From a virus, in IMG/VR virus record IMGVR_UViG_3300047470_000115, positions 1-64,000 of that record: a stretch of DNA of 64,000 bases; one strand, 5' to 3'. Position 1 is the first letter of the stretch. Each line of letters begins with the position of its first letter. Under the pieces are notes generated by a model. That model ran no database searches, was not told where the DNA came from, and worked only from the letters and a program-made list of their open reading frames with translations. Below, in pieces: positions 3,181 to 57,700 of this stretch. A program made the translations under genes and the position numbers.

Positions 3181-3638
3181 GCGACCCCCTTGAGGTCAGG
3201 ATTGTTGTTGATGCGCTGCATGTACTGCTCGCAGATGTAGTTCAGCACGGCATCGTCGATCTGACTCTTGCGCCGATTGCGACTCGCGCCAGGGTTGCCC
3301 TTCTGATACCGCTTGCGAGATCGGTCCCGCTCGGCCTTGAGGCACAGTGGGCCCTTGCAGCCTTCGTCGTACAGCTTCCGCCTGTTGTGGGTGCGATCAC
3401 GATACGTCTCGTCGGATAGTTCGAAAAGGATCTGACCGATGAGGACCGTGATACGTCCTTCCAGTTCTTCTGCAATGCTCTCATCCCCCGCCTTCGGGTC
3501 GTAACCCGAAGCTACCGCAGCACGAAAGACTGCCGCCCGGAACTCGGGCGAAGCCTTGATTTCGCTCAGGAACTCGTGAAGTTCCAGCATCCCTCTCCCC
3601 CTCGGAGATGCGTCACTGGTCATCTGACGCAAGGCCAT
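3177..3638 (-). CDS. Hypothetical protein with small Zn-binding, basic module
   Basis: HNRRKLYDEGCKGPLCLKAERDRSRKRY motif. Confidence 0.7.
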   Translation of the reverse strand: MALRQMTSDASPRGRGMLELHEFLSEIKASPEFRAAVFRAAVASGYDPKAGDESIAEELEGRITVLIGQILFELSDETYRDRTHNRRKLYDEGCKGPLCLKAERDRSRKRYQKGNPGASRNRRKSQIDDAVLNYICEQYMQRINNNPDLKGVA

Positions 3639-6264
3639 ACCTCACTGTCTTTCGACCAACCTGAGGCATCGTGGGCAAAGGCCACTGGATCTGCTTCAGG
3701 TCGCCGATCTCAACGAGATTCTTGATAGCCCTGACGAGAACTTCTCCATCGACTCGCGAGCGTCCGAGTGCGTCATGCAGCTCGCGATATGTAGGCGGCT
3801 TGCCGATCTTGAGCGTAAGCCTGCCAGCTTGGTGAAGAATCTTCTCGCGAAGTTCCGACGACTCCGTGGCCGTGAGCGATCGATCGAGGATGTTGTAGCT
3901 GTCCATCAGGTACGGATATACCTTCATGGCAGCCTCGACCGATTCAGTCGTGACCATGCTCTGACGTGAATTCAGCGCAAAGATCAGCATGAGCTTCTTT
4001 GCGATGAGGTCAGTGCGCTTGATGAGCTTGTTGTCGCCGTTCTTCTTCATGTTGGGATGTACGACGTCACCCAGCCAGTCACGACCGAGTGCTAGTGCCG
4101 CCTTATCCCAACCAATCTGCCTACCCTCGTTCTCGACTGCCCATTCGTGAATTGCCTTGAGGTAGGGTCCTGCAGCCTCGACGCTGGTGGGGTCACCACC
4201 AAGCATCTCTTCCTTGGCCATGATCTTCTCGGTCGCGGGTGCGAACACGAAGCGGTTCATGAAGCCGTTGTCTACATGCTCGCGCCCCACGAGGCGCTGG
4301 AGCATGCTAGGCTGTGTAGAGGTGAGCATGGTGACGAACGGGTCAGGTGCGACCTTGTCGCCGGTTGTGAACGAACTGGATTCGACCGGCGCGTACCCGT
4401 CAAAGAGGCCCTGGAGGATCGGAACGAAGTTAGAGGCTGGTCCCGACGACTTCGCCATGACAGTCGCCAGCTCGTCATACTCGACGAGGCCAGCAACTCT
4501 CTTGATCTCCAGGATACTACTTGGCTTGGCTGGGTCGCGCAGCTCGTCACGCAACTTGTCGATGAGCTTCTCGCCCGACGCTACACCCGAGATGAGTCGA
4601 GGTGCTGTGTTGAGCGGGTCGTTCGTCAGCCAAGGCATCGTTTCTCGGATGAGGCCGAGAATGAATGACTTGGCAACCGACTTACCGGCAGTGGTCTCGC
4701 CCAGTAGGCATACGTAGAGATTTGCGTACACCGGCTTAACTGTGTCTTGCAGGCCGAGGCGCTTTCCAACCGCGACACTTAGACCAGCTACACCGTTCCA
4801 GAAGTTCCATTCGTTCGGTGACGAGCTCGCGCGAAGAATGCGACAGTATGTTCCCAGGAAGGTGTCCTCCGCCACCATCAGTGGAACATCCAGAGGTGAG
4901 AACGCGAACTCGGAACTGCCTAGTTCTGCGTCATCCTCGTCGGGCGTCCTGACGCCGTAGTCTTCCAGCATGGCCTTGACGAGCCCGGGGTCAGTCGGGT
5001 CCATCCTGGGTGCAGGCTCGGAGACGAATAGCTTGCCGCCCATGCCGGGCATCAGGCCAATCCCTATGGTGGGAGCCTTCTTGGTGAGCGGCTTGAATCC
5101 AGGCGGGATGACTGCAGGCTGCTGTTCGGTGTCTTCGAGCATCTCCGCAGGAGGCGGAGCGATCGTACTGCCAAACAGTCCACCGAGGCCAGCCACCATC
5201 GGGGGCGGTGCGTCTTTTGAGGTCACGCCGTTTGGCGACCCCTCCGGACCGGCGACCTCCTGGGGTTCCGCTTCGGTTTTGGGTTGCCCGTTGTGCGTCG
5301 CAATCGGAGAGGCACCTGGAATCTGCGTAGGGATCGGCAGAGATGCAGGTGCCTCTTGCTGTGTGTCGTCGCCCTTGTTGTAGTACTTCCGCAGGCGAGT
5401 GTTGTAGTCATCGACCGACCCAAGATACATCTTGGTCAGTGGATCGAGGTTATCGGCAGGTTGACTCGGCTGTGGAATGACGGGCGGCTCAGTGGGGCGT
5501 TCGCGAGTCTCTTGTGGTGCCGTTACCGGCGCCCCCTGGTCGCCTTTCTGGTGATCTTCCTTTTCAGCCAGATATGCCTTCGCTGCCGGGCCGAGCAGGT
5601 GCGAGTCGACATCAACCCCGAGGTCGCGAGCCATGTCCAGTTTGAGCTGGCGAAAGCTTCCGTCAGTTTTGTACTGGAATAGGTTGTACCCGAGGCCGAC
5701 GGCTGCGAGGTCGTACTTGTCACCACCGCGCTGGCATCCGCCACAGTGCCAAAGGCCACCGTCACCCTTTGCGCTGTTGATCCACGCCGAGGGGTCGCTG
5801 TCCTCGTGTCCAGGGATAGGACACGAGATCATAATGCTTTCGACCTGGCCGTCGTAAACCTTCGGCTCCATCTTGCGAATCCACTTGCGGTAGGCGTCGA
5901 GGACGTCCACGCTAGAGATCGCATCATCGACGATGTGGTCGAGTTCGCTCTTCTCGTGACCCGAGTCCAGTTCGGCGCGCATTTCCTGCGCGTCAGCACT
6001 GACCTGGTTCTGAAGCCGCTTGTCGGTCGTAGTCTCCGGTCGACGCCCAAACAGTCCATTAAGTCCAGGAGCTTGCATCGGCGGAATGCGAGGCGGAGAC
6101 GGGCGGCGAACTCCGTTGGAGGCGGGTGCTGGCGGAGCCTGAGTTGAGTAGCCTACCAGTTCATCGAGCTGGCTGTCACGCTTCTCCTCCTGCCTAGCCT
6201 TAACGCGAGCCAGAAAAAAGTCATTATTGATTCCGGGCTCGTCCGTCACTTTCCACCTCCCCAC
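3613..6264 (-). CDS. Primase-associated helicase: CHC2-type Zn finger, Pro-rich linker, DUF3987-like P-loop helicase, C-terminal wHTH
   Basis: CPIPGHEDSDPS...WHCGGCQRGGD Zn finger; Walker A LLGETTAGKS; Walker B VEYDEL; GFMNRF arginine finger. Confidence 0.85.
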   Translation of the reverse strand: MGRWKVTDEPGINNDFFLARVKARQEEKRDSQLDELVGYSTQAPPAPASNGVRRPSPPRIPPMQAPGLNGLFGRRPETTTDKRLQNQVSADAQEMRAELDSGHEKSELDHIVDDAISSVDVLDAYRKWIRKMEPKVYDGQVESIMISCPIPGHEDSDPSAWINSAKGDGGLWHCGGCQRGGDKYDLAAVGLGYNLFQYKTDGSFRQLKLDMARDLGVDVDSHLLGPAAKAYLAEKEDHQKGDQGAPVTAPQETRERPTEPPVIPQPSQPADNLDPLTKMYLGSVDDYNTRLRKYYNKGDDTQQEAPASLPIPTQIPGASPIATHNGQPKTEAEPQEVAGPEGSPNGVTSKDAPPPMVAGLGGLFGSTIAPPPAEMLEDTEQQPAVIPPGFKPLTKKAPTIGIGLMPGMGGKLFVSEPAPRMDPTDPGLVKAMLEDYGVRTPDEDDAELGSSEFAFSPLDVPLMVAEDTFLGTYCRILRASSSPNEWNFWNGVAGLSVAVGKRLGLQDTVKPVYANLYVCLLGETTAGKSVAKSFILGLIRETMPWLTNDPLNTAPRLISGVASGEKLIDKLRDELRDPAKPSSILEIKRVAGLVEYDELATVMAKSSGPASNFVPILQGLFDGYAPVESSSFTTGDKVAPDPFVTMLTSTQPSMLQRLVGREHVDNGFMNRFVFAPATEKIMAKEEMLGGDPTSVEAAGPYLKAIHEWAVENEGRQIGWDKAALALGRDWLGDVVHPNMKKNGDNKLIKRTDLIAKKLMLIFALNSRQSMVTTESVEAAMKVYPYLMDSYNILDRSLTATESSELREKILHQAGRLTLKIGKPPTYRELHDALGRSRVDGEVLVRAIKNLVEIGDLKQIQWPLPTMPQVGRKTVRYGLASDDQ

Positions 6265-7091
6265 GGGTCTAGAGTCTTGAGGGCTACAGCGGGATCTAGT
6301 GGCTTCAGTTCCGCCATGGGGTGACGGCAGTCCACAAAGAACGTTGGATCTGTGGTCTTCTGATTGCGACCGAGTGGAAGGCGCATGAGGTTCCCGAGCC
6401 CCTTATTTTTGTTGTCCACTCGTTCTTGCTTGGGGAAGACCTCGATTGTGAAGTTCGGATACCCGAGTACGGGGTCCTGGTTCACATGCCTGAAGAAGTT
6501 CCTACCGTTGGTTGGCTCAAAGCATCCGAGGCTGTCAAGAACGATATCGATACCCTCCCTAGCCTGCTCTCCGGTGATGGGTCCTGCAAGCGCATAGACG
6601 TGCATGCCCTTGCTTCCGGAATAAGCGATAAGCGTGGGGAGTCCGAGTTCCCTCTTGATCGCCTGTCCAAGCATCTCGGATAGCATCCGAAATTGATACT
6701 TCAGCCAGGATCTCGGGAATTGAGGCTGTCGAGACGTCCAGTACTGAAGCGGACTGAATGCGACCGCATCATGGTTGCCCTCGACGTGTGGACTAGTCGG
6801 CCAGAACCCCTCCTTGTTGAGATCGATGTCAAATGCGAAGACTCGGCACACATTGGCCGAGTCCATCAGGTAATGCCCGTATGTAACTTTTTTATCGAGG
6901 TGATCACGGATATCTTGCACCGTGAACTCTCGATGTCTTATCGGGTGATAACCTCCAGGCTTATGGGGCTTCATTTGATACTTCGGGTCACGGTCCGGAT
7001 CGATCTCGTGGACCTGCATGCACTGGAAAGCTTTGACATCTCTACGCTGTACAAAGTAGCGCATGAGAAGCTCAGCGACCTCATCATTCAC
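6246..7091 (-). CDS. AEP-superfamily primase-polymerase
   Basis: AEP motifs FAFDIDL, AYSGSKGMHVY and EVFPKQ...GNLMRLPLG. GTG at 7091 with an AGGGG RBS is preferred over the longest-ORF start at 7178. Confidence 0.88.
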   Translation of the reverse strand: MNDEVAELLMRYFVQRRDVKAFQCMQVHEIDPDRDPKYQMKPHKPGGYHPIRHREFTVQDIRDHLDKKVTYGHYLMDSANVCRVFAFDIDLNKEGFWPTSPHVEGNHDAVAFSPLQYWTSRQPQFPRSWLKYQFRMLSEMLGQAIKRELGLPTLIAYSGSKGMHVYALAGPITGEQAREGIDIVLDSLGCFEPTNGRNFFRHVNQDPVLGYPNFTIEVFPKQERVDNKNKGLGNLMRLPLGRNQKTTDPTFFVDCRHPMAELKPLDPAVALKTLDPWGGGK

Positions 7092-7198
7092 TGAGACCCC
7101 TACTTGTGGTCGCCCTATCGACTCTTGCGTAAGTCGTTGGGCTAAGATATGCGGTAAGCTGTGCGATAATGTCGGCACAGCGCCGGGGTTTGATCACT

Positions 7199-7228
7199 AT
7201 CCTAGCCCTAGGGGGGGGAGTTTTACAA
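7199..7228 (-). promoter_or_regulatory. Sigma70/HrdB-type promoter for the primase operon
   Basis: TTGTAA-N18-TAGGAT on the minus strand. Confidence 0.55.
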
Positions 7229-7237
7229 CGTTCCTCC

Positions 7238-7267
7238 TTGACCGCGTGTCGCGATCCCGGTTATCAT
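7238..7267 (+). promoter_or_regulatory. Sigma70/HrdB-type promoter, divergent from the primase promoter
   Basis: TTGACC-N18-TATCAT. Confidence 0.7.
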
Positions 7268-7271
7268 CGGC

Positions 7272-7415
7272 ATGAGATATGCGGTGCTTGGTCTGGATTC
7301 CGACGAAGTCTTGCGATCGGCCCTCGGGTCGTTTCTTCGCGGATCAGTTACCCGTTCCGAGTGCTACCTGCTGAAGGCCCCCGTTGAGTTCCGAATCTCG
7401 ACGGGGGCCTTTTCC
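7272..7415 (+). ncRNA. Candidate small RNA (~140 nt), putative antisense regulator of primase mRNA
   Basis: Lies between a good promoter and an intrinsic terminator; folds into an irregular rod; 5' end repeats 7145-7155. Confidence 0.5.
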
Positions 7416-7420
7416 TCTTT
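7374..7420 (+). terminator. Rho-independent terminator
   Basis: AAGGCCCCCGTTGAG / CTCGACGGGGGCCTT stem (one U-G pair, favouring the + strand) followed by a T-rich tail. Confidence 0.85.
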
Positions 7421-7550
7421 ATTGCTCACGCTCCACTCCCCCGGCGTCGAATCGTGGTCCGCAGTAGGACTACGAAGTTAACGTCCGAAATGGCCCGTGG
7501 CCAGCGTTACAACCCGCGTAGCGCATCGGATGCACTGTTGGGGCGGTTTG

Positions 7551-9101
7551 ATGGGCGATCAGGGTATTCGCGAGTTCGATACCGAGATGTGGTTCCGTAA
7601 CCCGAACGGGTACGTGAAGGAGCTTGCCGAGGTTGGCGAGTACCTGGTCTCATGGGATTATGGACTTGTCAAGAAGACGCGTCTAGACCCCGTCAAGACG
7701 TGCGAGCTCTACTTCGGTATCGACAAGCCCTGGCGGGCAATCATTGTGGCCGAGTGGGGCGCGGCCGAGTATGTACCTGGAGACAAGTTCGGTACGCCGT
7801 CTGCGGTGTATCCAGTCTTCACTTACGGCGATAGCCAAGACATCCTCGAAGAGATGCTTGAGCTTCCGTGGGGCGAGGACGAGGAGATGTGCTCGAACCC
7901 TCGCGATCAGGACGCCGACAGGGTGCCCATCAAGGGCCAGGAACATCGAGTCGTCATCACGAGCCTGCCGAACATGCGAGACGCACGCTCGCGCGGCTTC
8001 CTCCGCTTCATGGCTGGGAAGCAGCAGGATTACCCGAACTGCATCGTTCACCTACATGGGCTTACTGCATTCAGGCCCATGTTCGCATACCCGTTCAGAG
8101 CGGTGGACTTCGAGGCACGGACAACCGCACAGGGCGGTAGGGTCTGTATGCCAACGGGTAACATCGTTCCGTATGAGCGTAGCGTGAATACTCCGCAGTG
8201 GCTCAAGCTTCTGGGTTACACGGTCGGTGACCTGGCCGTTCCCAGGAATCGCACGATGTTCAACATACGCTCGGCCGCCTGGGCATCGAAGTACTTCCGT
8301 GCCAGTCTGCGTTTCCGCGTGGGACGCGCAAGCCCGAATGGCTCCGTCTTCCCTGGCATGGGTAACGACGAGGCTGCGAATCAGCCTGACGACGAGCTGT
8401 CGGTGATGATTCGAGCCAGGGAGGCGGAGTGGCGCCGCAAGAACGGCGTACCCGCAGAGAGCGAGCCTGTTGATACGACGTCCAGCGACAAGGACTACAA
8501 ACCTGCCGAGGTGAAGAGCACCACGTCGCTGAAGTCCACGAAGTACCTTCCGGGTGACAAGGTGACATGCGATACATGCTCTGTCGCCCGTACATGCAAG
8601 GTCTACCGAGAAGGGTCGGTGTGCAACTTGTCTCAGTCTGACGGCCAGAAGCTAGCGAAGGCGTTCGGCAGCCGAGACTCAAGCCAGATCATCGACGCGC
8701 TTGGTCACGTACTCGGTATGCAGTCTCGACGCCTCGACACGGCGATGCAGAACGAAGAGGACTTCGGCGAGACCGACCCGAACGTAACCACTCTGATGAA
8801 CTCGTTGTTCAAGAACGGAACCACGCTCGCCAAGCTGGTCGATCCGTCTTTGAATGGAGCTGGGGTGAGTGTAAACGTCGGCGTGGCTGCCGGTGGACAG
8901 GCCCAGGTGATGACTGGCAACCCCAACACCATCATGGCGCAGATCATCAGGGTCCTGGAAGATAAGGGCATCCCTCGTAACGAGATCACCTCCGACATGG
9001 TCGCTGGCGTGCTCAAGGAGATGAATCGCGGCTCATCCGCCGTAGCCTCCGACGAACCGCGCGCTATCGAAGGGGTAGTTACGAAGAGGGCTGACGGATG
9101 A
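7551..9101 (+). CDS. Degenerate TGT/DpdA-like barrel fused to a Zn-finger/helical domain; occupies the small-terminase position
   Basis: VYPVFTYGD, VHLHGLT...MFAYPFRAVDF and GRVCMPTG resemble phage queuine-tRNA-ribosyltransferase-like proteins; CDTCSVARTC...C motif; ATGA overlap with terL. Confidence 0.6.
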   Translation: MGDQGIREFDTEMWFRNPNGYVKELAEVGEYLVSWDYGLVKKTRLDPVKTCELYFGIDKPWRAIIVAEWGAAEYVPGDKFGTPSAVYPVFTYGDSQDILEEMLELPWGEDEEMCSNPRDQDADRVPIKGQEHRVVITSLPNMRDARSRGFLRFMAGKQQDYPNCIVHLHGLTAFRPMFAYPFRAVDFEARTTAQGGRVCMPTGNIVPYERSVNTPQWLKLLGYTVGDLAVPRNRTMFNIRSAAWASKYFRASLRFRVGRASPNGSVFPGMGNDEAANQPDDELSVMIRAREAEWRRKNGVPAESEPVDTTSSDKDYKPAEVKSTTSLKSTKYLPGDKVTCDTCSVARTCKVYREGSVCNLSQSDGQKLAKAFGSRDSSQIIDALGHVLGMQSRRLDTAMQNEEDFGETDPNVTTLMNSLFKNGTTLAKLVDPSLNGAGVSVNVGVAAGGQAQVMTGNPNTIMAQIIRVLEDKGIPRNEITSDMVAGVLKEMNRGSSAVASDEPRAIEGVVTKRADG

Positions 9102-20035: not shown

Positions 20036-20274
20036 TCTTCAACTGGGCCTTCGATAAGAAACTCGAATGGATTCCAGAAAGTCTCCGACTGTACGTCTTC
20101 TGTAAATCGATCAAGTTCACGCACCTCCCGGTCGCCGGTGGCCTGTACGATCAGCACCCGGACTTGATTGAACAGTGGGAAGTCATCATGGAGGCCGAAG
20201 CTACTCGCCAGAGGCGCGACGAGGAAAAACGCGAGGCGGAATCTCGCCGAAATCAAAGGCGTCGCGCTAGATAG
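20011..20274 (+). CDS. Tail assembly chaperone -1 frameshift extension (gpGT analog)
   Basis: Open -1 frame encoding LPVAGGLYDQ; slippery site G GCA AAA at 20011-20017. Confidence 0.75.
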   Translation, partial: GKSRFRELVFNWAFDKKLEWIPESLRLYVFCKSIKFTHLPVAGGLYDQHPDLIEQWEVIMEAEATRQRRDEEKREAESRRNQRRRAR

Positions 20275-20370
20275 CCCCCGGTGCTTTACGGTGCCGGGGG
20301 TTGTCCTTTATCTTCAACAGTAGTCGGGTACGTGAGACCCTTTTGGACACTATAAGTCCTAGGGGTCTCG

Positions 20371-23300
20371 TTGAGCGCAGCAGTGATGAACATCCAGGTC
20401 CGAGTTATCAACGGCAATGCCCGCTCGGTTCTTCGGTCTCTGCGCTCCGACATCGACAACGTGAACCGTGCACTTGGGGACACGAATAAGCGGTCTGCAC
20501 TTTCAGGTCGAGGCATGACCTCCCTGGGTAACCAGATCCAATGGACTGGACGACAGATCCAGACCAACTTCACCTTGCCACTCATCGCTGCAGGTGCTGC
20601 TGCAGTCCATTGGCAACTCCAAAACGAACAGGCGATGACAAGAGTCGCCAAGGTTTACGGGGACGCCTCTCTCTCTGCAGCCACAATGAAGAACGAGCTC
20701 CATGCACTGAGTGGTGCATTCGAGGAACTGTCGAACCACTTCGGCGTGCAGCAGTCCGAGGTCATCGGCATCGCGGGTGACTGGGCTGCAGCCGGTGCAT
20801 CAGGCCTTGCCCTCGCCAAGAGTGTCAAGCTCACCCTTGAGACCATGGTCCTCGGCGAGATGGACGCAGCCGAAGCGACGCAGGCACTCATCGCGATCCA
20901 GGCACAGTACGGATTCAGCACTACTCGCCTCGCTGAAACGATCGGCTACCTGAACGCCGTCGAGAACCAGACCGGTATCTCGATGAAGGGCCTCATTCAG
21001 GGCTTCGCGCGTTCTGCTGGTGTAGCACGTCAGGCAGGTGTCGACGTCCGGCACCTGGCCGCCATGCTCGCAGCCATCAGCCCCGCTGCAGGTGGTGCGG
21101 CTGAAGCCGGTAACGCACTCAAGACTATCTTCTCTCGACTTGCATCTCCAACTCGCGAAACAAGTCAGGTGCTGAACCTCATGGGTATCAGCATGAAGGA
21201 CTTGGAGTGGAAGTCGTCGACGGCCACCGAGCAGCTTCAGATCATGTCGAAGAAGTTCAAAGAGCTGTCGGACAAGCAGAAGGAAGTCGTCTCGACGGTT
21301 GTCGCGTCGCGTTGGCAGATCAACAAGTTCTCCATCCTCATGCGTGAGTTGTCATCGGAGAACGGCTACTACCAGAAGGCGCTTGATGCGACAGCGAGTC
21401 GTCAGCACGTCTTCAACCTGTACCAGAAGGAGCTCAACACTGTACTGAGCTCTAATCCGCGTCGGCTGCAGATCATCTGGACGATGATGCAGAACGCTGC
21501 GACCGACATCATCCAGCCGATGATCCCACTTCTCCTGTATGTGGCGAACTCGGTTCGCATGGTGGTCCAAGCATTCTCGAGCTTGGACCCGGCACTCCAG
21601 AAGCTTATCCTGTTCGGACTGGTAGCCCTCGCGTTTGTTGGGCCGTTCGTCAGGTACGTCGGATCGTTGCTGACGCTGATTGGCGCACTCGTCACGATCG
21701 TCAGTGCCATGGCTGCGCCATTTATAGCTGGCTTCGCGGCCATCGGAACTGGCGCAGCAGCATTCGCTAAGGGTATTGGTTTCGTCTGGACCACCATCAT
21801 GGTGAACCTGAGAGCCATTACTTATATCGGGATGGCCTGGATTCAAGGTGTCTGGGCTGCTGGCATGTTTGGACTGCGCCCCATCCTGTCGCTGGTCGGA
21901 ATGATCATCGCGAGCAGGTGGGCAACGCTGATGGCAGCGCTCCCCCGTACCATGGCGGCAGCCCAGATCCTCATGAGGACGATCTGGATCAATGGTCTGC
22001 TCGCCCTGGCCGCAGCACAGATCGTGGTAGGTGCCCTACTGACCCGCGCTTGGCTGGCGACCATGAGGGCGCAGGCTGTGATCACCTCGGTTGCGGGTAC
22101 CGCAATCAGGGCAGCCTATACAGGTTTGATGCTGAGTATCGCGGCTATCTCGTCCGTGGTGTACCCGCTCGTTGTGCGCATGTGGACTGCGATGATGACA
22201 GGCGTCTTCATCGTGGTGAACGCTTGGAGCAGGTTCACTACGATGATCTACCGCGCCTTTGCGATGGGCCTTACGCCCATCAGCGTGGCGGCTGGCGCGC
22301 TCCTCACTGCAGCCTGGACCGCAATTACCACTGCTGTACAGTACGTGCTCCTCGCTGGCACGATTGCGTACACAGCTATTTGGCGCCTGTTCGCCTTCGG
22401 CCTCGCGCCCATCACCGCAGCTGCAGGCAGGCTACTCACTGCAGCGTGGGTCGCGACAATGCGCGCCCAGATGATCGTGATGGCGGCAGCTCAGAGAGCG
22501 TGGGCTCTTGCGTGGTCCGGCATGGTCGCGATTGCTGCAGCTGGCTCCAGAGCCATCGCCCTCGTAACCACCATGGCCACGGGCGCGATCACCCTCCTGG
22601 CGGCGTTCCCCGGACGCGTGGCAGCCCTCTTCCGTGGCGGTTGGGCCCTATTGCTAATAGTGGCGAGAGCCGGACTTGCCGGTCTCGCGTCGCTCATTAC
22701 CGGCGCGGTTGGTGCGATCAGTTGGCCCGTCGTAGCAGTGATTGCTGCCGTCGTTCTGTTGATCGCAGGGTTCTGGGATCAGATCCAGGCCATCTGGAAC
22801 AACATAGTCAACTACTTCAGCAACAGTGGGAACTCGCTAGTTACGGCAGTCAGGAACACCTTTGGCAGCCTGGGCAGCATGATGTCCAGGGTGTTCAACA
22901 AGCTGCCCGAGAGTGTGAAGAACGCAATGCTGGCGGTGGTCAGCCTGGTCGCCGCAGCCGCACGCAAGGTGTACGAACTCTTCAGCTACATCAACCCGTT
23001 CGCGCATCACTCGCCCTCGCTCGTCGAGAATGTCACGAACGGTATGGCGATAGTTCGCAAGCAGTTCGCGACACTCTCCGAGGTTGAGGGTTACGTCAAG
23101 TCTGCCTACGCAACGATCAGTGCATTCGGGCGCGCGACGGCAGGCCTCGCCTCGAAGAACCAGGCAGCCGACTTCGCGGAGAAGCGCGCCTCGATCGTCA
23201 AGCAGTCCCCGAGTGCCGGGCCTGCGTTTGACTCGATGGTGGCACAGATCAATAAGCTGACGCCTGTACTTAACCAGCTGAAGTCTGCAGTAGCAGCACA

Positions 23301-26300
23301 GCAGGCTGTCGTTGATCAGTGGTCCAAGGCTCTTGACGATGCCAACGCCAAGCTGGACGTTCAGCAGGATAAGCTAGAGAAGCTGAAGAAGGTTGCTGAC
23401 GACCTACAGAACCAGCTCGATGCTGCGAAGTCGACTCTCGACACCTGGGCGGACACTCCCATCCAGGGTCAGCAGGCAATGTCTGATGCGATCTTCGATA
23501 ACACGATGGCGCAGAAGAAGCTCCAACTTCAGATGATGGAGATGGAGAAGATCACCGGCCCGCTTGATGACATCAAGAGTAAGATGTCTGCGATCAACGG
23601 CCAGATGGATCAGCTGCAGGGCATGCGTACAAGCCTTCAGCAGGGTGGCGCTGGATCTGACATCCTCAAGTTCTATGACGACCAGCTCGCTGGCCTGCAG
23701 GGTCAGAGTGATGGACTTGGAGAGCAGGCGAAGGCGCTCCAGGATATGCAGGATCAGCTCGACGAGTTGGCGCGCAAGGGCCAGGAGCTTGACCTGCAAA
23801 ACAGCATCCAGTTCGATCCGCTGATTCGGCAGATCGAGCAGGCGTCGAAGGATATGAAGGAGATGCCCTTCGACACCATCATGGCTGGGATTAAGGGCAG
23901 CAAGGCTGAAGTCGACAGCCTGACTGATGCGTACAACAAGGCTAACGCCGAGGTCGAGAAGCAGCAGAAGGTCGTTGACGCAGCCACGGCGGCGCGTGAC
24001 GCGATCCAGAAGCGTTACGATGAAGAGAACAAGAAGCTTCAGACCCTCAAGGACTCGTACGACAAGATCAACCAGGCCATCCAGGACATCACCAACAGCC
24101 TGAATGACATGGCATCGGCAGCTGATGCTGCTACCCGTCGGGCTACCGATAAGAAGGCAAAGAAGAAGGGTGGCGACAGCCTCAGCCCTGGTGCGCAAAA
24201 CTTTATCGATGCAGCCGGTGGCAACTTCCCCGACCCGGGCATGGATGCCGCGATTGGCCGAGAAGGCGGTATAGGGGATCAGTCGTCGGCCATTGACGAC
24301 TTCACGAAGGATCTTGCTAAGCAGACGTCCGGTATGTTTGCTGGACTCAATCCCCTTGGCCCGCTCAAGAAGTGGTGGGACAAGGCGTGGAGCTGGCTCA
24401 AGAAGTACATCGGCCCGCTGTTCTCCGGACTGGGAGACTTCATCGGCTCCGCCTTCGAGGGTATGGGAGACCCCTTCGGTGGCGCGATGAGCGGATGGAT
24501 GGACAGCATCAAGGGTTTCGTTGACACTTCGGTAAAGGTGTTCGGCGAGATCGTTAGCGGCGTGTCCACATTCGTCGGACAAGTCTGGGGATTCATCCAA
24601 GGGTTCTGGGACTTTGCGCAGCCTATCTTTGAGCACCTATGGGACGGCATTGTCGATGGACTCAAGAAGATGTGGGACAAGATTGGTCCACAGCTTGCAG
24701 CGTTCGGCGACCTCGTCAAGCCCGTCGGTGACGCGATCAGTAACCTGTGGACACTGATCGGACCTATCATTGGACTGATCTTCGCTGATCTTGCTGCAGG
24801 CGTAATGCTCGTGGTGGACATCATCGCGCACACCATCGGTCCAGTACTCGAGACCATTGGTGCCATCATCGGTGGAGTCATCCGCATCATTCGAGGAGTC
24901 ATCGAGTTCCTCGTCGGAGTCTTTACCCTCGACTGGGATATGGCCTGGAAGGGCATCACTGATATCTTCGGTGGCGTCTGGGACATCATTGCAGGCATCG
25001 TTACAGGCGCCTGGAATATCGTGGTCGGTATCCTCGTAGGTGCACTTGACTGGGTTGGCCATGTCTTCGCGTTCATCTGGAACAAGGTCAAGGGGCCGTT
25101 CAAGGATGCATGGGACTGGATCACAAAGAAGCTGACAGGCTGGAAGGATAGCTTCGTCGGCACTATGCGAGACCTGTCGAACTGGCTCGGCACGAAACTC
25201 GCCAACGCATGGAAGCCCGTAAGTGACTGGTGGAGCTCGACTTGGGGCACCATCAAGAAGAATGCGATCGGCGCCAAGGACGCGATCATTAAGCCCTTCG
25301 TCGATATGTATAACTGGATCTCCAGCAAGCTCACTGGTGTCATGGGGACCATGTCGGCGAAGTGGAAAGAAAAGTGGACAGACCTTAAGAAGTGGTTCAA
25401 CGACGCGAAGAAGTGGATCAGCGATCCGCTGAAGGACGGCATCAACTTCGCGATCTCGGCGATCAACCTGCTCATCAGTGGACTGAACAAGGTAGCCGAC
25501 CTACTGCCAGGTCTGGACTGGCACATCAGCCCCATCCCGAAGCTGGCAGCCGGTGGTGGCATTCCGACTAAGCATGTCGGCGGAGGCTTCAAGACGACTG
25601 GTCCGAGGGCCATCGTCGGCGAGGGTAACCAGCGATACCCAGAGTATGTCATCCCGACTGATCCGATGTATCGAGGTCGAGCGTTCAACCTGCTCGGCGG
25701 TCTTACGTCTGACCTTGGAATCGCGCAGAGTTCGATCGGAGGCGTCCCGGCCTACAAGGGCGGTGGCATCCTCGGCTCGATCGGTGACGCGATCGGAAGT
25801 GCAGGAAACTTCTTCAAGGGCCTGGGCGACGACCTACTGAGTCACATCAGCGACGGTGTGGCAAGTTACATTGTCGATCCATTCTTCAAGATGGCTGACC
25901 CCTGGGTAAGCAAGATTAATTGGAAGTTCGTCAAGGGTATGTGGAATGCCGGAAAGGCGAAGATCAAGGACTGGCTGTCGTTCACTGATGACGCCGCGAA
26001 GGAGAAGTACGAGGAGGGTGGCGCCGCTGGAATCCCTGCTGGAAAGCTGAAGACCTGGATCACCAAGGCCCTCGGCATCATCAAGGAATCCCTGAGTCTC
26101 TCCAAGGGCGTCTACAACATCGCCATGCATGAGTCTGGCGGTAACCCTCGGGCTATCAACCTCACGGACAGCAATGCCAAGGCGGGTCACCCGTCCAAGG
26201 GCGTTATGCAGACTATCGACGGCACGTTCAACGCGTACTCGATCAAGGGCCACAAGGATATCTGGAACCCGGTCGACAACATCATCGCGGGTACCAGGTA

Positions 26301-26634
26301 TGCAATCTCTAGGTACGGACGCAAGTGGCTCCAGAAGGGTGGCAACCGAGACAAGAACGGAAATTACATTGGTTACGAGATGGGTGGCATTTTGGGGTCC
26401 ATCCCGAGCCTCGCGCAGGGTGCTTACATCCGGCGCAAGGCGGGCGGTACGATCGTCCGGGTTGGAGAGGGTCAGCACGACGAAGCTGTTCTGCCACTGC
26501 CTAGGGGTGCACAGGATCTCAAGGGTGGGACGACGAACAACTTCTACGGCGACCTGTCCTTCCCGAACATCAAGTCTGGCGACGACGCCCAGGCGTTCCT
26601 CGATAACCTTGAGACCCTAACGGCAGGTAAGTGA
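20371..26634 (+). CDS. Tape measure protein with C-terminal lytic transglycosylase (SLT) domain
   Basis: 2087 aa; TP901-like N-terminal core, hydrophobic and coiled-coil segments, Trp-periodic repeats; HESGGNPRAIN...SKGVMQTI...NPVDNIIAG SLT motif. Confidence 0.93.
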   Translation: MSAAVMNIQVRVINGNARSVLRSLRSDIDNVNRALGDTNKRSALSGRGMTSLGNQIQWTGRQIQTNFTLPLIAAGAAAVHWQLQNEQAMTRVAKVYGDASLSAATMKNELHALSGAFEELSNHFGVQQSEVIGIAGDWAAAGASGLALAKSVKLTLETMVLGEMDAAEATQALIAIQAQYGFSTTRLAETIGYLNAVENQTGISMKGLIQGFARSAGVARQAGVDVRHLAAMLAAISPAAGGAAEAGNALKTIFSRLASPTRETSQVLNLMGISMKDLEWKSSTATEQLQIMSKKFKELSDKQKEVVSTVVASRWQINKFSILMRELSSENGYYQKALDATASRQHVFNLYQKELNTVLSSNPRRLQIIWTMMQNAATDIIQPMIPLLLYVANSVRMVVQAFSSLDPALQKLILFGLVALAFVGPFVRYVGSLLTLIGALVTIVSAMAAPFIAGFAAIGTGAAAFAKGIGFVWTTIMVNLRAITYIGMAWIQGVWAAGMFGLRPILSLVGMIIASRWATLMAALPRTMAAAQILMRTIWINGLLALAAAQIVVGALLTRAWLATMRAQAVITSVAGTAIRAAYTGLMLSIAAISSVVYPLVVRMWTAMMTGVFIVVNAWSRFTTMIYRAFAMGLTPISVAAGALLTAAWTAITTAVQYVLLAGTIAYTAIWRLFAFGLAPITAAAGRLLTAAWVATMRAQMIVMAAAQRAWALAWSGMVAIAAAGSRAIALVTTMATGAITLLAAFPGRVAALFRGGWALLLIVARAGLAGLASLITGAVGAISWPVVAVIAAVVLLIAGFWDQIQAIWNNIVNYFSNSGNSLVTAVRNTFGSLGSMMSRVFNKLPESVKNAMLAVVSLVAAAARKVYELFSYINPFAHHSPSLVENVTNGMAIVRKQFATLSEVEGYVKSAYATISAFGRATAGLASKNQAADFAEKRASIVKQSPSAGPAFDSMVAQINKLTPVLNQLKSAVAAQQAVVDQWSKALDDANAKLDVQQDKLEKLKKVADDLQNQLDAAKSTLDTWADTPIQGQQAMSDAIFDNTMAQKKLQLQMMEMEKITGPLDDIKSKMSAINGQMDQLQGMRTSLQQGGAGSDILKFYDDQLAGLQGQSDGLGEQAKALQDMQDQLDELARKGQELDLQNSIQFDPLIRQIEQASKDMKEMPFDTIMAGIKGSKAEVDSLTDAYNKANAEVEKQQKVVDAATAARDAIQKRYDEENKKLQTLKDSYDKINQAIQDITNSLNDMASAADAATRRATDKKAKKKGGDSLSPGAQNFIDAAGGNFPDPGMDAAIGREGGIGDQSSAIDDFTKDLAKQTSGMFAGLNPLGPLKKWWDKAWSWLKKYIGPLFSGLGDFIGSAFEGMGDPFGGAMSGWMDSIKGFVDTSVKVFGEIVSGVSTFVGQVWGFIQGFWDFAQPIFEHLWDGIVDGLKKMWDKIGPQLAAFGDLVKPVGDAISNLWTLIGPIIGLIFADLAAGVMLVVDIIAHTIGPVLETIGAIIGGVIRIIRGVIEFLVGVFTLDWDMAWKGITDIFGGVWDIIAGIVTGAWNIVVGILVGALDWVGHVFAFIWNKVKGPFKDAWDWITKKLTGWKDSFVGTMRDLSNWLGTKLANAWKPVSDWWSSTWGTIKKNAIGAKDAIIKPFVDMYNWISSKLTGVMGTMSAKWKEKWTDLKKWFNDAKKWISDPLKDGINFAISAINLLISGLNKVADLLPGLDWHISPIPKLAAGGGIPTKHVGGGFKTTGPRAIVGEGNQRYPEYVIPTDPMYRGRAFNLLGGLTSDLGIAQSSIGGVPAYKGGGILGSIGDAIGSAGNFFKGLGDDLLSHISDGVASYIVDPFFKMADPWVSKINWKFVKGMWNAGKAKIKDWLSFTDDAAKEKYEEGGAAGIPAGKLKTWITKALGIIKESLSLSKGVYNIAMHESGGNPRAINLTDSNAKAGHPSKGVMQTIDGTFNAYSIKGHKDIWNPVDNIIAGTRYAISRYGRKWLQKGGNRDKNGNYIGYEMGGILGSIPSLAQGAYIRRKAGGTIVRVGEGQHDEAVLPLPRGAQDLKGGTTNNFYGDLSFPNIKSGDDAQAFLDNLETLTAGK

Positions 26635-54823: not shown

Positions 54824-57700
54824 TTATGACAGAAGCCTCTCGCGAAGTTTCTCGGAGACGAGATGAACATCCTGCGGACCGCTGACGACCACCGTATCAA
54901 GGCCATACGCCGAAGGGCTATCCGTGTTAATGCCCACACCCACGAGGTGAATTCCGGCAGCCTTGCACAGTTCGATGTTGTCCGTGAGGATATCCAGTTC
55001 CTCGTTGTAGTTGGCTTGCGGCATGCGGCCGTCAGTGAAGTAGAAGAATACCTTGTCGGTCGCTCGAATCCCCTGCATCTGCTTACGGTAGAACTCGAGC
55101 GTATGTCCGTCGAGGTTCTCCGAGTCCGGGCCGAGAGTCGACACGGCCTCACGCGCACGAGCACTCCACGGCTCATTGAACGGCTTACACTCGTACATGT
55201 TCGCAACGAGCTTCGTGTCGTACGTCATGACAGGCTGACGGCTACGTCCGCGCCCCTGCCACTGCCTCCACTGCCACTGCGCCGAGTGACCCCAGACTGC
55301 GAACTTGACACCAGGCAGGGCGTTCATCGCATCAGCCATGACCAGGGCACACTGCTTGAGTAGCAGGAGGTTTATGCCGGTCGTGCTGGCCGACAGGTCA
55401 ATGCCCATACCAACTGCATACTCGCGCTTAGCGGGACGCTGCTTCTTCTGGAAGACGCGATCGTCTCCGAAGGGGACGCGTCGCGCCAGCATCGAGCCTG
55501 CAATGTCGCCAGTCTTGCGGTTTCGAACCTGACTCGACCTTTTATTGAAGTCGAAGATCGGCCTGACCGCACCAATGAAACGACTGATGTCCGCAATGCT
55601 CGGCTCGAATGCACCCTCGATGCCGAGCTGCGCATTGTTGTAGTTCGCAAGCGACCGATAAGGCTCGTAGGCATGCGTCCAGGCGAGTGCTGCATCTCGA
55701 CCGTTCTCGTCGAGTGCATGTCGATCTGGGCGTGAAATCAACAGGCCAGTGACATCTCGACGGACAACGTCGAAGGCCATGATCTGGGAATCTGCTGTTC
55801 CCATCTCCTCTTCGAGTGTCTTGATCTGCTCTGGACTGACGGTGTCCTTGCTGGCCGTAGCCTGGTGGGCGAACTGCTCGAAGCCCTTCTCTAGATCTTC
55901 CGGCGTGCCGTACTCGCTCGGATCGATCTGCTGCGGCTGGCGGTCTAGAGGCTCATCACCCTTCTCGTCAAGGTTCTCGCGATCGAAGTCCTCGTCCTCG
56001 TCGCCATCCCACGGACTGTCTTCGGAGTCGTCGTCGCCCTGCTCTGTCGAGTCGGAAGCCTCACCATCAGCCTCGCCGTCAACTTCACCGTCAGAGTCGT
56101 CATCAGAGTCACCGTCACCCTCGCCTTCGCCAGAGCCGGTGCCGCCCGATCCACTTCCGCCATCGGGCGCCTCGTCCTCTCCGTCACCGTCCCCGGTATC
56201 GGGCGTGACTGATGAAGAGGAGTCGTCGTCCCCGTCCTCCGAGCCATCCTGGGCCGGTTCCCCGCCACCGTCCGACGATTCCGAATCGTCGCCTTCACCC
56301 TCAGATTCCTCGCCTGTGCCGCCAGGGCCACCAGAGTCCGACTCCTTGTCGGCATCTTCGGCGTCTCCCTGACCGCTACCCTCGTCGGCGTCGTCGCCGC
56401 CTTCATCCTCGTCGGACTCATCCGACCCCTGGCCGCCGTCAGCGTCGTCGCCCTCGTCGGAGTTCGACTCATCATCCTGCTGGTCAGTACCACCAGACGA
56501 GTCAGACTCCTCGGCATCTTCCGACTCCTCGTCGGACTCGCCATCACTCTGGCCGCCGTCGGAGTCGGAATCCGAGTCAGACTCTTCTTGCCCGTCGTTG
56601 TCACCAGAGTCTTCGTCGGAATCCTCGTCGGACGAGTCATCGGACTCTTCGAACTGAATTTCAGTCTGTTCGCCAGGTCCAGCCGAGTCGTCCGGCTCGC
56701 TGTCGTCCTCATCCTTCGGCTCGGGCTGCGGCTGGGGCTCGCCGTCCTGGTCGTCCTCGTCCTCGTCCTCGCTGTCCTGCTCCGGGAAGAACCCGAGCTC
56801 CTGCGCGATAGACAGGAAGTCCTGTGATGCATGGAAGGCGTCGCGAACGGTCCTCATGCCGCCTTCGAGCGACCTCGCGAACTCCTGCATGACGGGATTC
56901 TCGATCGCCTCTACGACCGGCTCGCTGTACGCAGTTGGCACAAACGAATCCAGCACCAGGTTATAGAACGCGACCACGAGCTGGACGTTGAGGGGCTGAC
57001 CCCTGAAGGGCATCCACACCTTCTCGCCCTCGTCACCCTCGATCATCTCGCCGCCGGACTCCTGGCGACGGATAATGTCAGCGCGACGCACGCGAGCTGA
57101 ACCAGGGCGAACCTTACCCATCTTCAGGTCGACGCGCACATCTTCCATGATGTTGACGATCGCCGGAAGATACGGCGACGAGACGGCTGCGACAGTCATC
57201 CAGTCGGGCGACCGCATCAGTGCCTCGCGGAGCTTCTCACCCGTAGCCTGATCGACCTTTCCGGTCGAGATCATGCGACGGATGGCAGACATGATGTCAG
57301 CATCCTTAGCGGGCTCGAAAGTATTGTGTGCTACGTGCGAGATCTCGTGAACCATGCGGGACATAACGAGATCGTTGATAGCGCAGCGCCTGCACCTCGA
57401 CTCGCCATAGGAGGTCCGAAGATCACAGAAGTTCGGCTGGTGCGAACCGGCCTTGCCGAGGGCGAGAGGCGGACGCACGTAGATGTCCTGGTTGTCGGTC
57501 CAAGACTTGTCCCATGTCAGCCGCACTCGAAGTGAAGGCCGCTTAGTGACTACCCTCGCGAACGACTCAAGCATCGGACGCATGGCTGCGAACTCCTGCG
57601 CCGTCTGTCGAACCAACTCGCGCAGGGCGTGATTCGCCATGTCCTGCGTATCGACTGCAACCTCAAGGGGATCTCCCCCCTCGTACACACTGCTAACCAT
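54824..57700 (-). CDS. CobT-like VWA protein: HExxH domain, long acidic linker, VWA domain
   Basis: VHEISHVAH and NIMEDVRVD motifs; about 280-aa D/E/S/G tract; MIDAS GIDLSAST and FYFTDGRMP. Confidence 0.88.
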   Translation of the reverse strand: MVSSVYEGGDPLEVAVDTQDMANHALRELVRQTAQEFAAMRPMLESFARVVTKRPSLRVRLTWDKSWTDNQDIYVRPPLALGKAGSHQPNFCDLRTSYGESRCRRCAINDLVMSRMVHEISHVAHNTFEPAKDADIMSAIRRMISTGKVDQATGEKLREALMRSPDWMTVAAVSSPYLPAIVNIMEDVRVDLKMGKVRPGSARVRRADIIRRQESGGEMIEGDEGEKVWMPFRGQPLNVQLVVAFYNLVLDSFVPTAYSEPVVEAIENPVMQEFARSLEGGMRTVRDAFHASQDFLSIAQELGFFPEQDSEDEDEDDQDGEPQPQPEPKDEDDSEPDDSAGPGEQTEIQFEESDDSSDEDSDEDSGDNDGQEESDSDSDSDGGQSDGESDEESEDAEESDSSGGTDQQDDESNSDEGDDADGGQGSDESDEDEGGDDADEGSGQGDAEDADKESDSGGPGGTGEESEGEGDDSESSDGGGEPAQDGSEDGDDDSSSSVTPDTGDGDGEDEAPDGGSGSGGTGSGEGEGDGDSDDDSDGEVDGEADGEASDSTEQGDDDSEDSPWDGDEDEDFDRENLDEKGDEPLDRQPQQIDPSEYGTPEDLEKGFEQFAHQATASKDTVSPEQIKTLEEEMGTADSQIMAFDVVRRDVTGLLISRPDRHALDENGRDAALAWTHAYEPYRSLANYNNAQLGIEGAFEPSIADISRFIGAVRPIFDFNKRSSQVRNRKTGDIAGSMLARRVPFGDDRVFQKKQRPAKREYAVGMGIDLSASTTGINLLLLKQCALVMADAMNALPGVKFAVWGHSAQWQWRQWQGRGRSRQPVMTYDTKLVANMYECKPFNEPWSARAREAVSTLGPDSENLDGHTLEFYRKQMQGIRATDKVFFYFTDGRMPQANYNEELDILTDNIELCKAAGIHLVGVGINTDSPSAYGLDTVVVSGPQDVHLVSEKLRERLLS

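Follow-up and report, generated by a model that had tools for sequence, protein, structure and literature searches.

The gap between the leftward early replication operon and the rightward packaging/late operon of an uncultured soil phage appears to encode a short RNA that faces the packaging genes, and the question that it raises is whether this RNA could act back on the first gene of the replication operon. The sequence examined here, referred to as the window, is the stretch of 64,000 nucleotides that makes up the first 64 kb of a 79,487-base IMG/VR virus record (IMGVR_UViG_3300047470_000115), rated complete. An original prediction had proposed that a non-overlapping antisense RNA controls translation of the primase-helicase message by pairing with an exposed part of its leader. 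We assign a probability of about one half to the reading that the locus specifies a trans-antisense RNA, divergently encoded, whose target is the leader of the early replication operon.

Genomic context of the control region

The source phage, whose genome is ~79 kb, is by its sequence an actinophage related to Gordonia and Rhodococcus phages. The first gene of its leftward early operon encodes an AEP-type DNA primase/polymerase (minus strand, 6249..7091; Pfam PF22548, E 2e-14; phrog_5362, E 4.5e-66), a protein of 281 amino acids with a GTG start codon at 7091, and the next is a helicase gene (minus strand, 3616-6264; phrog_5311 match). Plus-strand genes for the small terminase (terS), the large terminase (terL) and the portal begin at about 7551; the two operons, early replication and packaging/late, diverge from the control region (7092-7550) that lies between them. 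This divergent primase/terS layout is common to all of the nearest cultured relatives, namely the Gordonia phages Woes, Monty-like and Demosthenes-like, the Rhodococcus phages ReqiDocB7, Reynauld, Perlina and Mbo2, and Tsukamurella phages, with primases that are 35-39% identical to that of the window. The closest primase relatives (P0002-P0011, from Logan/ENA) are 63-80% identical. A DNA search of a phage collection with a query from the 7-kb region (6900-7700) gave no match. In protein-pattern scans of a viral contig collection, no match to the primase, whether queried singly or as an alignment, exceeded 47%; the same kind of scan with terS gave nothing, and a protein-pattern scan of a genome contig collection was likewise empty.

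The start of terS is probably the ATG at 7551 (MGDQGIREFDTEMWFRNP) rather than the GTG at 7497. The WFRNP motif lies 5-12 residues from the start of terS in relatives, and 7497-7550 is unlikely to be coding because one close strain (X3) has lost one nucleotide at 7513 and gained one at 7526. The close strains are Logan contigs from four soil and rhizosphere runs, 95-99% alike, and among them the plus-strand spacer from the terminator to the probable terS start (7421..7550) is more variable than positions 7092-7384. Inside the late operon, a second 16-pair terminator-like hairpin (plus strand, 20270-20305; GATAGCCCCCGGTGC...GCCGGGGGTTGTC followed by CTTTATC) is found just upstream of an ORF of tape-measure size (2087 aa, 20371-26634), where late transcription may read through or step down.

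Promoters, terminator and the predicted plus-strand RNA

Back-to-back promoters had been proposed for the gap, and the two differ in their match scores. The rightward promoter (TTGACC-18-TATCAT, plus strand, 7238..7267) matches at 10 of 12 positions and is the sole plus-strand site to do so between 7 and 47 kb. The leftward promoter (TTGTAA-18-TAGGAT, minus strand, 7199..7228), found by pattern match, agrees at only 8 of 12 positions and falls below the calling level of the promoter scan, but it is kept in the relative L018 discussed below. A sequence near 46.5 kb that resembled the leftward promoter was rejected as a second copy, the site being a ribosome-binding site and start region.

The strong terminator of the original prediction is borne out by a hairpin of 16 pairs (7373-7412), of which 10 are G-C, followed by a T-rich tail (plus strand, 7373..7420). 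With its ends set by the promoter and the terminator, the predicted non-coding RNA would cover 7273..7420 of the plus strand (~145 nt). Its fold as a whole is more stable than that of shuffled sequences (z -4.46), which is due to the terminator; the body without the terminator (7273-7372) has a z of -0.52, a stability equal to that of shuffles, and this does not support the rod-like fold that had been suggested for the RNA. The first 8 nt are predicted to be open (1.05 kcal/mol), and freeing all of the first 14 nt would cost 6.9 kcal/mol. An Rfam search of 6500-8000 with all families (E<=10) returned only chance-level hits to ar7 and L21_leader, and among the sequencing runs holding this phage sequence none is listed as an RNA run. 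A 14-mer of the plus-strand RNA (GGATTCCGACGAAG, 7295-7308) recurs in inverted form at 56611-56624, within a 958-aa minus-strand gene; pairing with this copy would require an antisense transcript of the gene, and the recurrence is probably due to chance (~0.2 expected).

The RNA overlaps an ORF of 69 amino acids (7272-7481), and translation of this ORF had been named as one outcome that would speak against a regulatory RNA. Both this ORF and one of 31 amino acids (7279-7374) are present, an ATG is located near the predicted 5' end of the RNA, and actinobacteria commonly have leaderless mRNAs. However, single-nucleotide deletions shift the frame of the 69-aa ORF at 7351 in strain X6 and at 7414 in strain X2, and in L018 both the start (ATG) and the frame are changed. 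The ORF also runs through the terminator, has no Pfam or PHROG match, and has a flat G+C content by codon position (0.57/0.51/0.63) as compared with that of the primase gene (0.61/0.37/0.62). A small protein as the product of this region is thus highly improbable. Because near-identical strains frameshift the ORF and changes in the terminator preserve its pairing, the best reading of the stretch 7273-7420 appears to be that it is non-coding.

The X2 contig covers the whole stretch and differs from the window at 19 positions, at least 18 of which are listed; a further 22 differences exist across the strains, and the counts that follow refer to the differences listed. Ten of the X2 differences fall within 242 nt of the primase gene, eight of them at third codon positions, and none among those listed falls within the 293 nt of 7092-7384. 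Two others lie in the terminator stem, where 7385 T>C (U.G to C-G) and 7401 A>G (U-A to U.G) both keep the pairing. In X6, differences amount to ~2% over 6987-7404 as compared with 5-7% in the coding flanks, and the deletion at 7351 is within a predicted internal loop. Recent recombination may account for part of the conservation in X2, since the identical block extends 80 nt into the primase gene. Overall, the existence of a non-coding, terminated plus-strand RNA unit is considered quite probable.

Complementarity between the RNA and the primase leader

The primase mRNA leader (minus strand, 7092..7192; ~100 nt), with its transcription start placed by the -10 box, is predicted to fold stably (dG -37.2, z -3.28). 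Its elements, in order, are a 5' ACCCC, a first hairpin (GCUGUGC/GCACAGC), an unpaired linker, a second hairpin and the ribosome-binding site AGGGGU. As had been suggested, the 5' ACCCC is predicted to pair with the GGGGU at the ribosome-binding site in the window (P ~0.85, with an opening cost of 6.1 kcal/mol), but this closing helix is absent from the prediction for L018.

An exact 11-mer, AGATATGCGGT, occurs as a direct repeat at 7145-7155 and 7275-7285, 130 bp apart, as the original prediction had stated. It has no other copy with one mismatch or fewer in the 79.5-kb genome, and none of 200 shuffles of the 405-nt region contained an exact repeat of 11. Because the repeat is direct and the two transcripts are divergent, the 5' end of the plus-strand RNA can pair with the minus-strand leader: the first 14 nt of the RNA (UGAGAUAUGCGGUG, plus strand, 7273..7286) are complementary over 14 bp, including 2 G-U pairs, to the leader at 7156-7143. 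This target (UACCGCAUAUCUUA, minus strand, 7143..7156) is the linker between the two hairpins, and its predicted openness agrees with the single-stranded state that had been claimed for it (mean unpaired probability 0.88, opening cost 0.6 kcal/mol).

The predicted energy of the hybrid is about -22.9 kcal/mol, a raw value that ~10 other sites in the window equal. When G-U pairs are allowed, 10 of 200 shuffles also reached a run of 14 nt and many such runs exist genome-wide, and unconstrained RNAduplex on long sequences placed the window no better than shuffles. A global 7-mer accessibility screen was too noisy to separate a signal, and a scan of the viral contig collection for the 14-mer TTGTAAAACTCCCC yielded chance hits only. 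The loop of the terminator in the window has no match to its own primase leader. A second short complementarity connects UCUUGCG of the plus-strand RNA (7309-7315) with CGCAAGA (7123-7129) in the apical loop of leader hairpin 2; at 7 nt it is at chance level alone, and it could be a second contact.

Co-variation of the two copies in a relative

The original prediction had pointed to co-variation of the two copies in related phages as a means of evaluating the pairing. The sole informative relative for the window's own pairing is L018, a 1,106-base JGI contig with a primase 70% identical and 227 nt of sequence upstream of the primase. Both promoters are kept in L018 (TTGTAA-17-TAGGAT and TTGACC-18-TATCAT). 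From the transcription start to the ribosome-binding site the leader is otherwise barely alignable with that of the window, and its two hairpins are replaced by different ones in the same places. The 5' end of the L018 RNA is nevertheless AGATGTGTGGTGCTTT and the leader carries GAAGUGUCACACAUC, with a spacing of 129 bp as compared with 130 bp in the window, and the two can form 15 bp with 4 G-U pairs, a length reached by 1 of 200 shuffles.

Relative to the helix of the window, that of L018 has two double changes (A-U to G-C and C-G to U-A) and two one-sided changes to G-U; it lacks a pair at one end and is longer at the other. The double changes would fit a site for a protein equally well. The one-sided changes favour RNA, since it is on the transcribed strands alone that they preserve pairing, and applying the opposite wobble rule gives no extension of the repeat. 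Coming from one relative, the co-variation is suggestive of RNA pairing. By prediction, the window RNA would bind the L018 leader poorly, at -7.1 kcal/mol as compared with -18.1 kcal/mol for the cognate pair. In L018, again by prediction, the ribosome-binding site has another pairing partner and the target is harder to open, requiring 5.25 kcal/mol to free.

Two other sequence elements were noted in this comparison. The word GTGGTGCTT occurs twice in L018 (77-85 and 26-34), once abutting the -35 box of the rightward promoter on its upstream side and once within the 5' portion of the small RNA; such a second copy is absent from the window. TGAGAT/TAAGAT was considered as a -10-like pause element and dropped because its key positions are changed in L018.

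Loop-to-leader matches in distant relatives

More distant loci from IMG/VR and JGI, with primases 34-47% identical, were also compared. Four of them (L006, L007, L008 and L010) have a promoter, then 70-100 nt, then a G+C-rich hairpin and T-rich tail in the primase-terS gap, and strong hairpins are likewise present in L009, L011, L012, L015 and L019. The 11-mer of the window was not found in these distant relatives. A different kind of complementarity, between the loop of the hairpin and the phage's own leader, is found in relatives with primases 38-47% identical. In L008 the hairpin loop GAAUGGGAAAGC matches CUUUCCCA of its leader over 8 bp, loop to loop, CUUUCCCA being within a 14-nt loop of a leader hairpin; the equivalent match in L009 and L019 is 7 bp, and a C-G pair in the stem of the leader hairpin of L008 is U-A in L009. 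In L006 the loop GUCGGAC matches GUCCGAC over 7 nt, located 3 nt upstream of the ribosome-binding site. The L007 loop GACCCCAAGC matches CUUGGGG (7 nt), which is the ribosome-binding site itself, and in L012 UUCCGGAGG matches CCUCCGGAA over 9 nt just upstream of the ribosome-binding site, its loop being partly self-paired. Three of the seven clades (L010, L011 and L015) have no loop-to-leader match.

Compared with dinucleotide-shuffled leaders, the matches have p values of 0.018 (L008), 0.097 (L006), 0.006 (L007) and 0.007 (L012), and the Fisher combined value over the seven metagenomic clades is p = 0.0012, for a test that was devised after the L008 match and is partly post hoc. Same-sense and reversed loops, as controls, gave 4-7 nt, and leaders of other loci reached at least 7 nt in 10 of 134 comparisons.

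Assessed apart from these seven clades, the cultured Rhodococcus phage Reynauld (L003, OR159659.1) carries CCGGACAGGG(G/A)AT at 1748-1760 and 1900-1912, 152 bp apart, in the gap between gene 13 and gene 14. Ten nucleotides are exact (6 of 200 shuffles) and the match extends over 10-13 nt. One copy forms the apical hairpin (loop GGACAG) of a long terminator-like hairpin that is followed by UUUUCAU on the terminase side, and the other copy lies in the leftward leader. No terminated unit was found in the gap of the cultured Gordonia phages Woes, Diabla and Teatealatte or of the Rhodococcus phages Perlina and ReqiDocB7, and the gaps of these five phages measure 140-185 bp.

A separate repeat was observed in L006 (IMG/VR 3300037193_000386, ~2860-2930), in which the 10-mer GGGGTGCCAT occurs twice, 58 bp apart (3 of 200 shuffles), with one copy in the spacer of the primase promoter and one immediately before the -35 box of the promoter that faces the other way. 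This pair looks like a protein operator pair and is distinct from the loop match.

Alternative explanations

The promoter, short RNA and terminator could instead form a late-operon leader or attenuator comparable to lambda pR'-6S-tR', where host polymerase would start early and stop at the terminator until a phage factor permits read-through, the repeat being incidental or a site for that factor. The position of the unit directly upstream of terS, terL and portal is as expected for such a leader, as are the uniqueness of its promoter between 7 and 47 kb and the recurrence of promoter, 70-100 nt and hairpin before terS in L006, L007, L008 and L010; the terminator-like hairpin at 20270-20305 suggests, moreover, that late transcription reads through terminators. 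A Q-type gene is nevertheless absent, in that PF03589 and PF06530 have no match in the 79.5-kb record under conditions in which E. coli controls were positive, although an unrelated antiterminator is possible. The 130 nt between the terminator and terS leave room for a separate late promoter, and cultured relatives that do not have the unit still express their late genes. A late leader leaves unexplained both the co-varying complementarity to the primase leader and the loop matches of the relatives. As the sole explanation it is considered unlikely, and it may coexist with an antisense role.

The two 11-mers might also be DNA sites for a single phage regulator, one covering +2 to +12 from the rightward promoter and the other +38 to +48 from the leftward promoter; the bound protein would loop the 130 bp holding both promoters and shut both. 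That the genome has only two copies, which flank both promoters, is in keeping with an operator pair, and so are the near-constant spacing in L018, the two positions changed alike in both copies there, and the arrangement of GGGGTGCCAT in L006. Asymmetric direct repeats are not what such a pair would lead one to expect, however, and 130 bp corresponds to ~12.4 helical turns, a spacing that is not in phase for loop formation. All differences between the copies are of the kind that preserves G-U pairing on the transcribed strands, and the words of the relatives sit in the apical loops of hairpins (both partners in L008), which is odd for a duplex-DNA site; an operator pair is accordingly regarded as rather improbable. 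Even more doubtful is a chance or historical duplication devoid of function, with any short RNA made from the locus acting on host targets or merely stopping transcription. The frequency of G-U-allowing 14-nt runs in the genome and in shuffles, and the unremarkable unconstrained duplex energies, are what chance would produce. The exact 11-mer repeat is not, given its absence from 200 shuffles, and neither are the retention of the pairing at the same position, with co-variation, beside a diverged leader in L018 and the enrichment of loop-to-leader matches across the family.

Proposed mechanism and implications

In the antisense reading, transcription of the early replication operon, primase first and helicase second, would start from the leftward promoter and open with a structured leader of ~100 nt, and the rightward promoter would make a non-coding RNA of ~145 nt whose 3' end is set by the strong terminator, before the packaging genes begin. 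This RNA would use its first 14 nt to pair in trans with the exposed linker of the primase leader, and would thereby serve as an antisense regulator of the early operon, coupling a fall in early-gene expression to the dose of rightward transcripts. We infer the synthesis of the RNA, its binding, and the direction and route of its effect from sequence.

The route is constrained by the position of the target. The target lies 52-65 nt upstream of the primase GTG (7091) in an already open stretch between two hairpins, and the ribosome-binding site ~55 nt downstream of it is predicted to be sequestered. Holding the target single-stranded leaves the predicted access to the ribosome-binding site unchanged (6.1 versus 6.4 kcal/mol). 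Because the target is far from the start and already open and access is unchanged, direct occlusion of the ribosome-binding site is unlikely in the clade of the window. The likeliest routes to translational control would be a block of a standby site or cleavage triggered by the duplex, as for IstR-1 on tisB. A simple translational block would fit L006, L007 and L012, whose matches overlap or adjoin the ribosome-binding site. The proposal of a non-overlapping antisense RNA on the primase-helicase operon is partly supported, by the non-coding unit, the co-variation in L018 and the loops of the relatives, with the unchanged predicted access counting against it.

More tentatively, and at somewhat less than even odds, the family-wide pattern may reflect a fast-evolving trans-antisense RNA at the early/packaging junction of a family of soil actinophages that silences or tunes the whole early operon in step with genome copy number or late transcription. 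The pairing part would have shifted its place during evolution, lying at the 5' end of the RNA in the window and L018 and in the apical loop of the terminator hairpin in L006, L007, L008/L009/L019, L012 and Reynauld, and the target in the leader would have moved along with it. If this is true, plasmid-like copy-control logic would have been rebuilt in trans in lytic phages, and the family would hold a natural set of orthogonal RNA/target pairs.

Little is known about the timing of early and late gene expression in actinophages. If the antisense reading is correct, the gene at the head of the replication operon would be controlled by an RNA made where the packaging side begins, by way of pairing pieces that evolve fast yet stay matched, and this would offer a simple mechanism for an early-to-late switch or for the dosing of replication. 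Mutually specific RNA/leader pairs might also be usable as regulators in Mycobacterium, Rhodococcus or Gordonia. The presence of a candidate version in cultured Reynauld opens the idea to bench work.

Comparison with known systems

The closest parallels are the divergent type I antitoxin RNAs of E. coli, namely IstR-1/tisB, OhsC/shoB, OrzO/zorO and AgrB/dinQ, in which the antisense RNA pairs far upstream in a 5' UTR (PMC4147584). The true ribosome-binding site of tisB is structured and IstR-1 competes with standby ribosomes at an open stretch; both standby block and cleavage have been described for this pair, and for OhsC, OrzO and AgrB they have been proposed (PMC4147584). The locus in the window resembles the IstR-1/tisB type in having what appears to be a separate small RNA gene, with its own predicted promoter and terminator, that faces away from the primase gene without overlap, and in its potential to pair over a short stretch with the 5' UTR at some distance from the start (14 bp, and 15 bp in L018). 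In the window the leader is predicted to combine a structured ribosome-binding site (P ~0.85) with an open stretch, as in tisB; in L018 the site is predicted to have another partner and the target to be less accessible. It differs in that the target is a primase/helicase operon instead of a small toxic peptide and that the host is an actinobacterium, and there is no sequence relation.

A likeness to the CopA/CopT system of plasmid R1 and to RNA I of ColE1 lies in the copy-number-linked dose of an RNA that would act on the leader of a replication gene, and the loop-to-loop match in L008 and L009 resembles the kissing recognition of plasmid countertranscripts. Those RNAs are, however, encoded in cis and overlap their targets fully, whereas the window RNA is trans-encoded and its pairing is 14-15 bp (7-13 nt in relatives). 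Lambda pR'-6S-tR' shares the strong promoter, the short terminated transcript and the late genes directly next to it; unlike in lambda, no Q homologue was found here, and the lambda 6S RNA has no known antisense target. The CI RNA of phage P4 and the c4 RNA of P1/P7 are likewise encoded by phages and regulate a phage operon in trans through a leader site that they do not overlap; the P4 operon under CI holds the primase gene alpha. These RNAs are processed from the transcript of their own target, and CI acts via transcription termination, in contrast to the divergent promoter and opposite strands of the present locus; unlike c4 (RF01695), the window RNA matches no Rfam family.

Among phages of related hosts, cluster A mycobacteriophages and Rhodococcus phage WC1 have intergenic non-coding RNAs that are highly expressed by RNA-seq and whose function is unknown (PMC10986025). 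Their position differs from that of the RNA proposed here, they have no sequence relation to it, and no target pairing is described for them (PMC10986025). The repeat also differs from the stoperators of cluster A mycobacteriophages and cluster CA Rhodococcus phages, which consist of many asymmetric sites of 13-14 bp scattered genome-wide, as opposed to the two copies found here; hits to the 11-mer with 2 mismatches are at control level, and the stoperator-type site of WC1 has 16 copies. Phage antisense RNAs on non-overlapping sites and the divergent trans-antisense RNAs of type I toxin-antitoxin loci are thus kinds of regulator that are already known. What would be new here is an RNA with its own promoter, divergent from the replication operon, in actinophages, with a pairing piece that shifts between the 5' end and the terminator loop.
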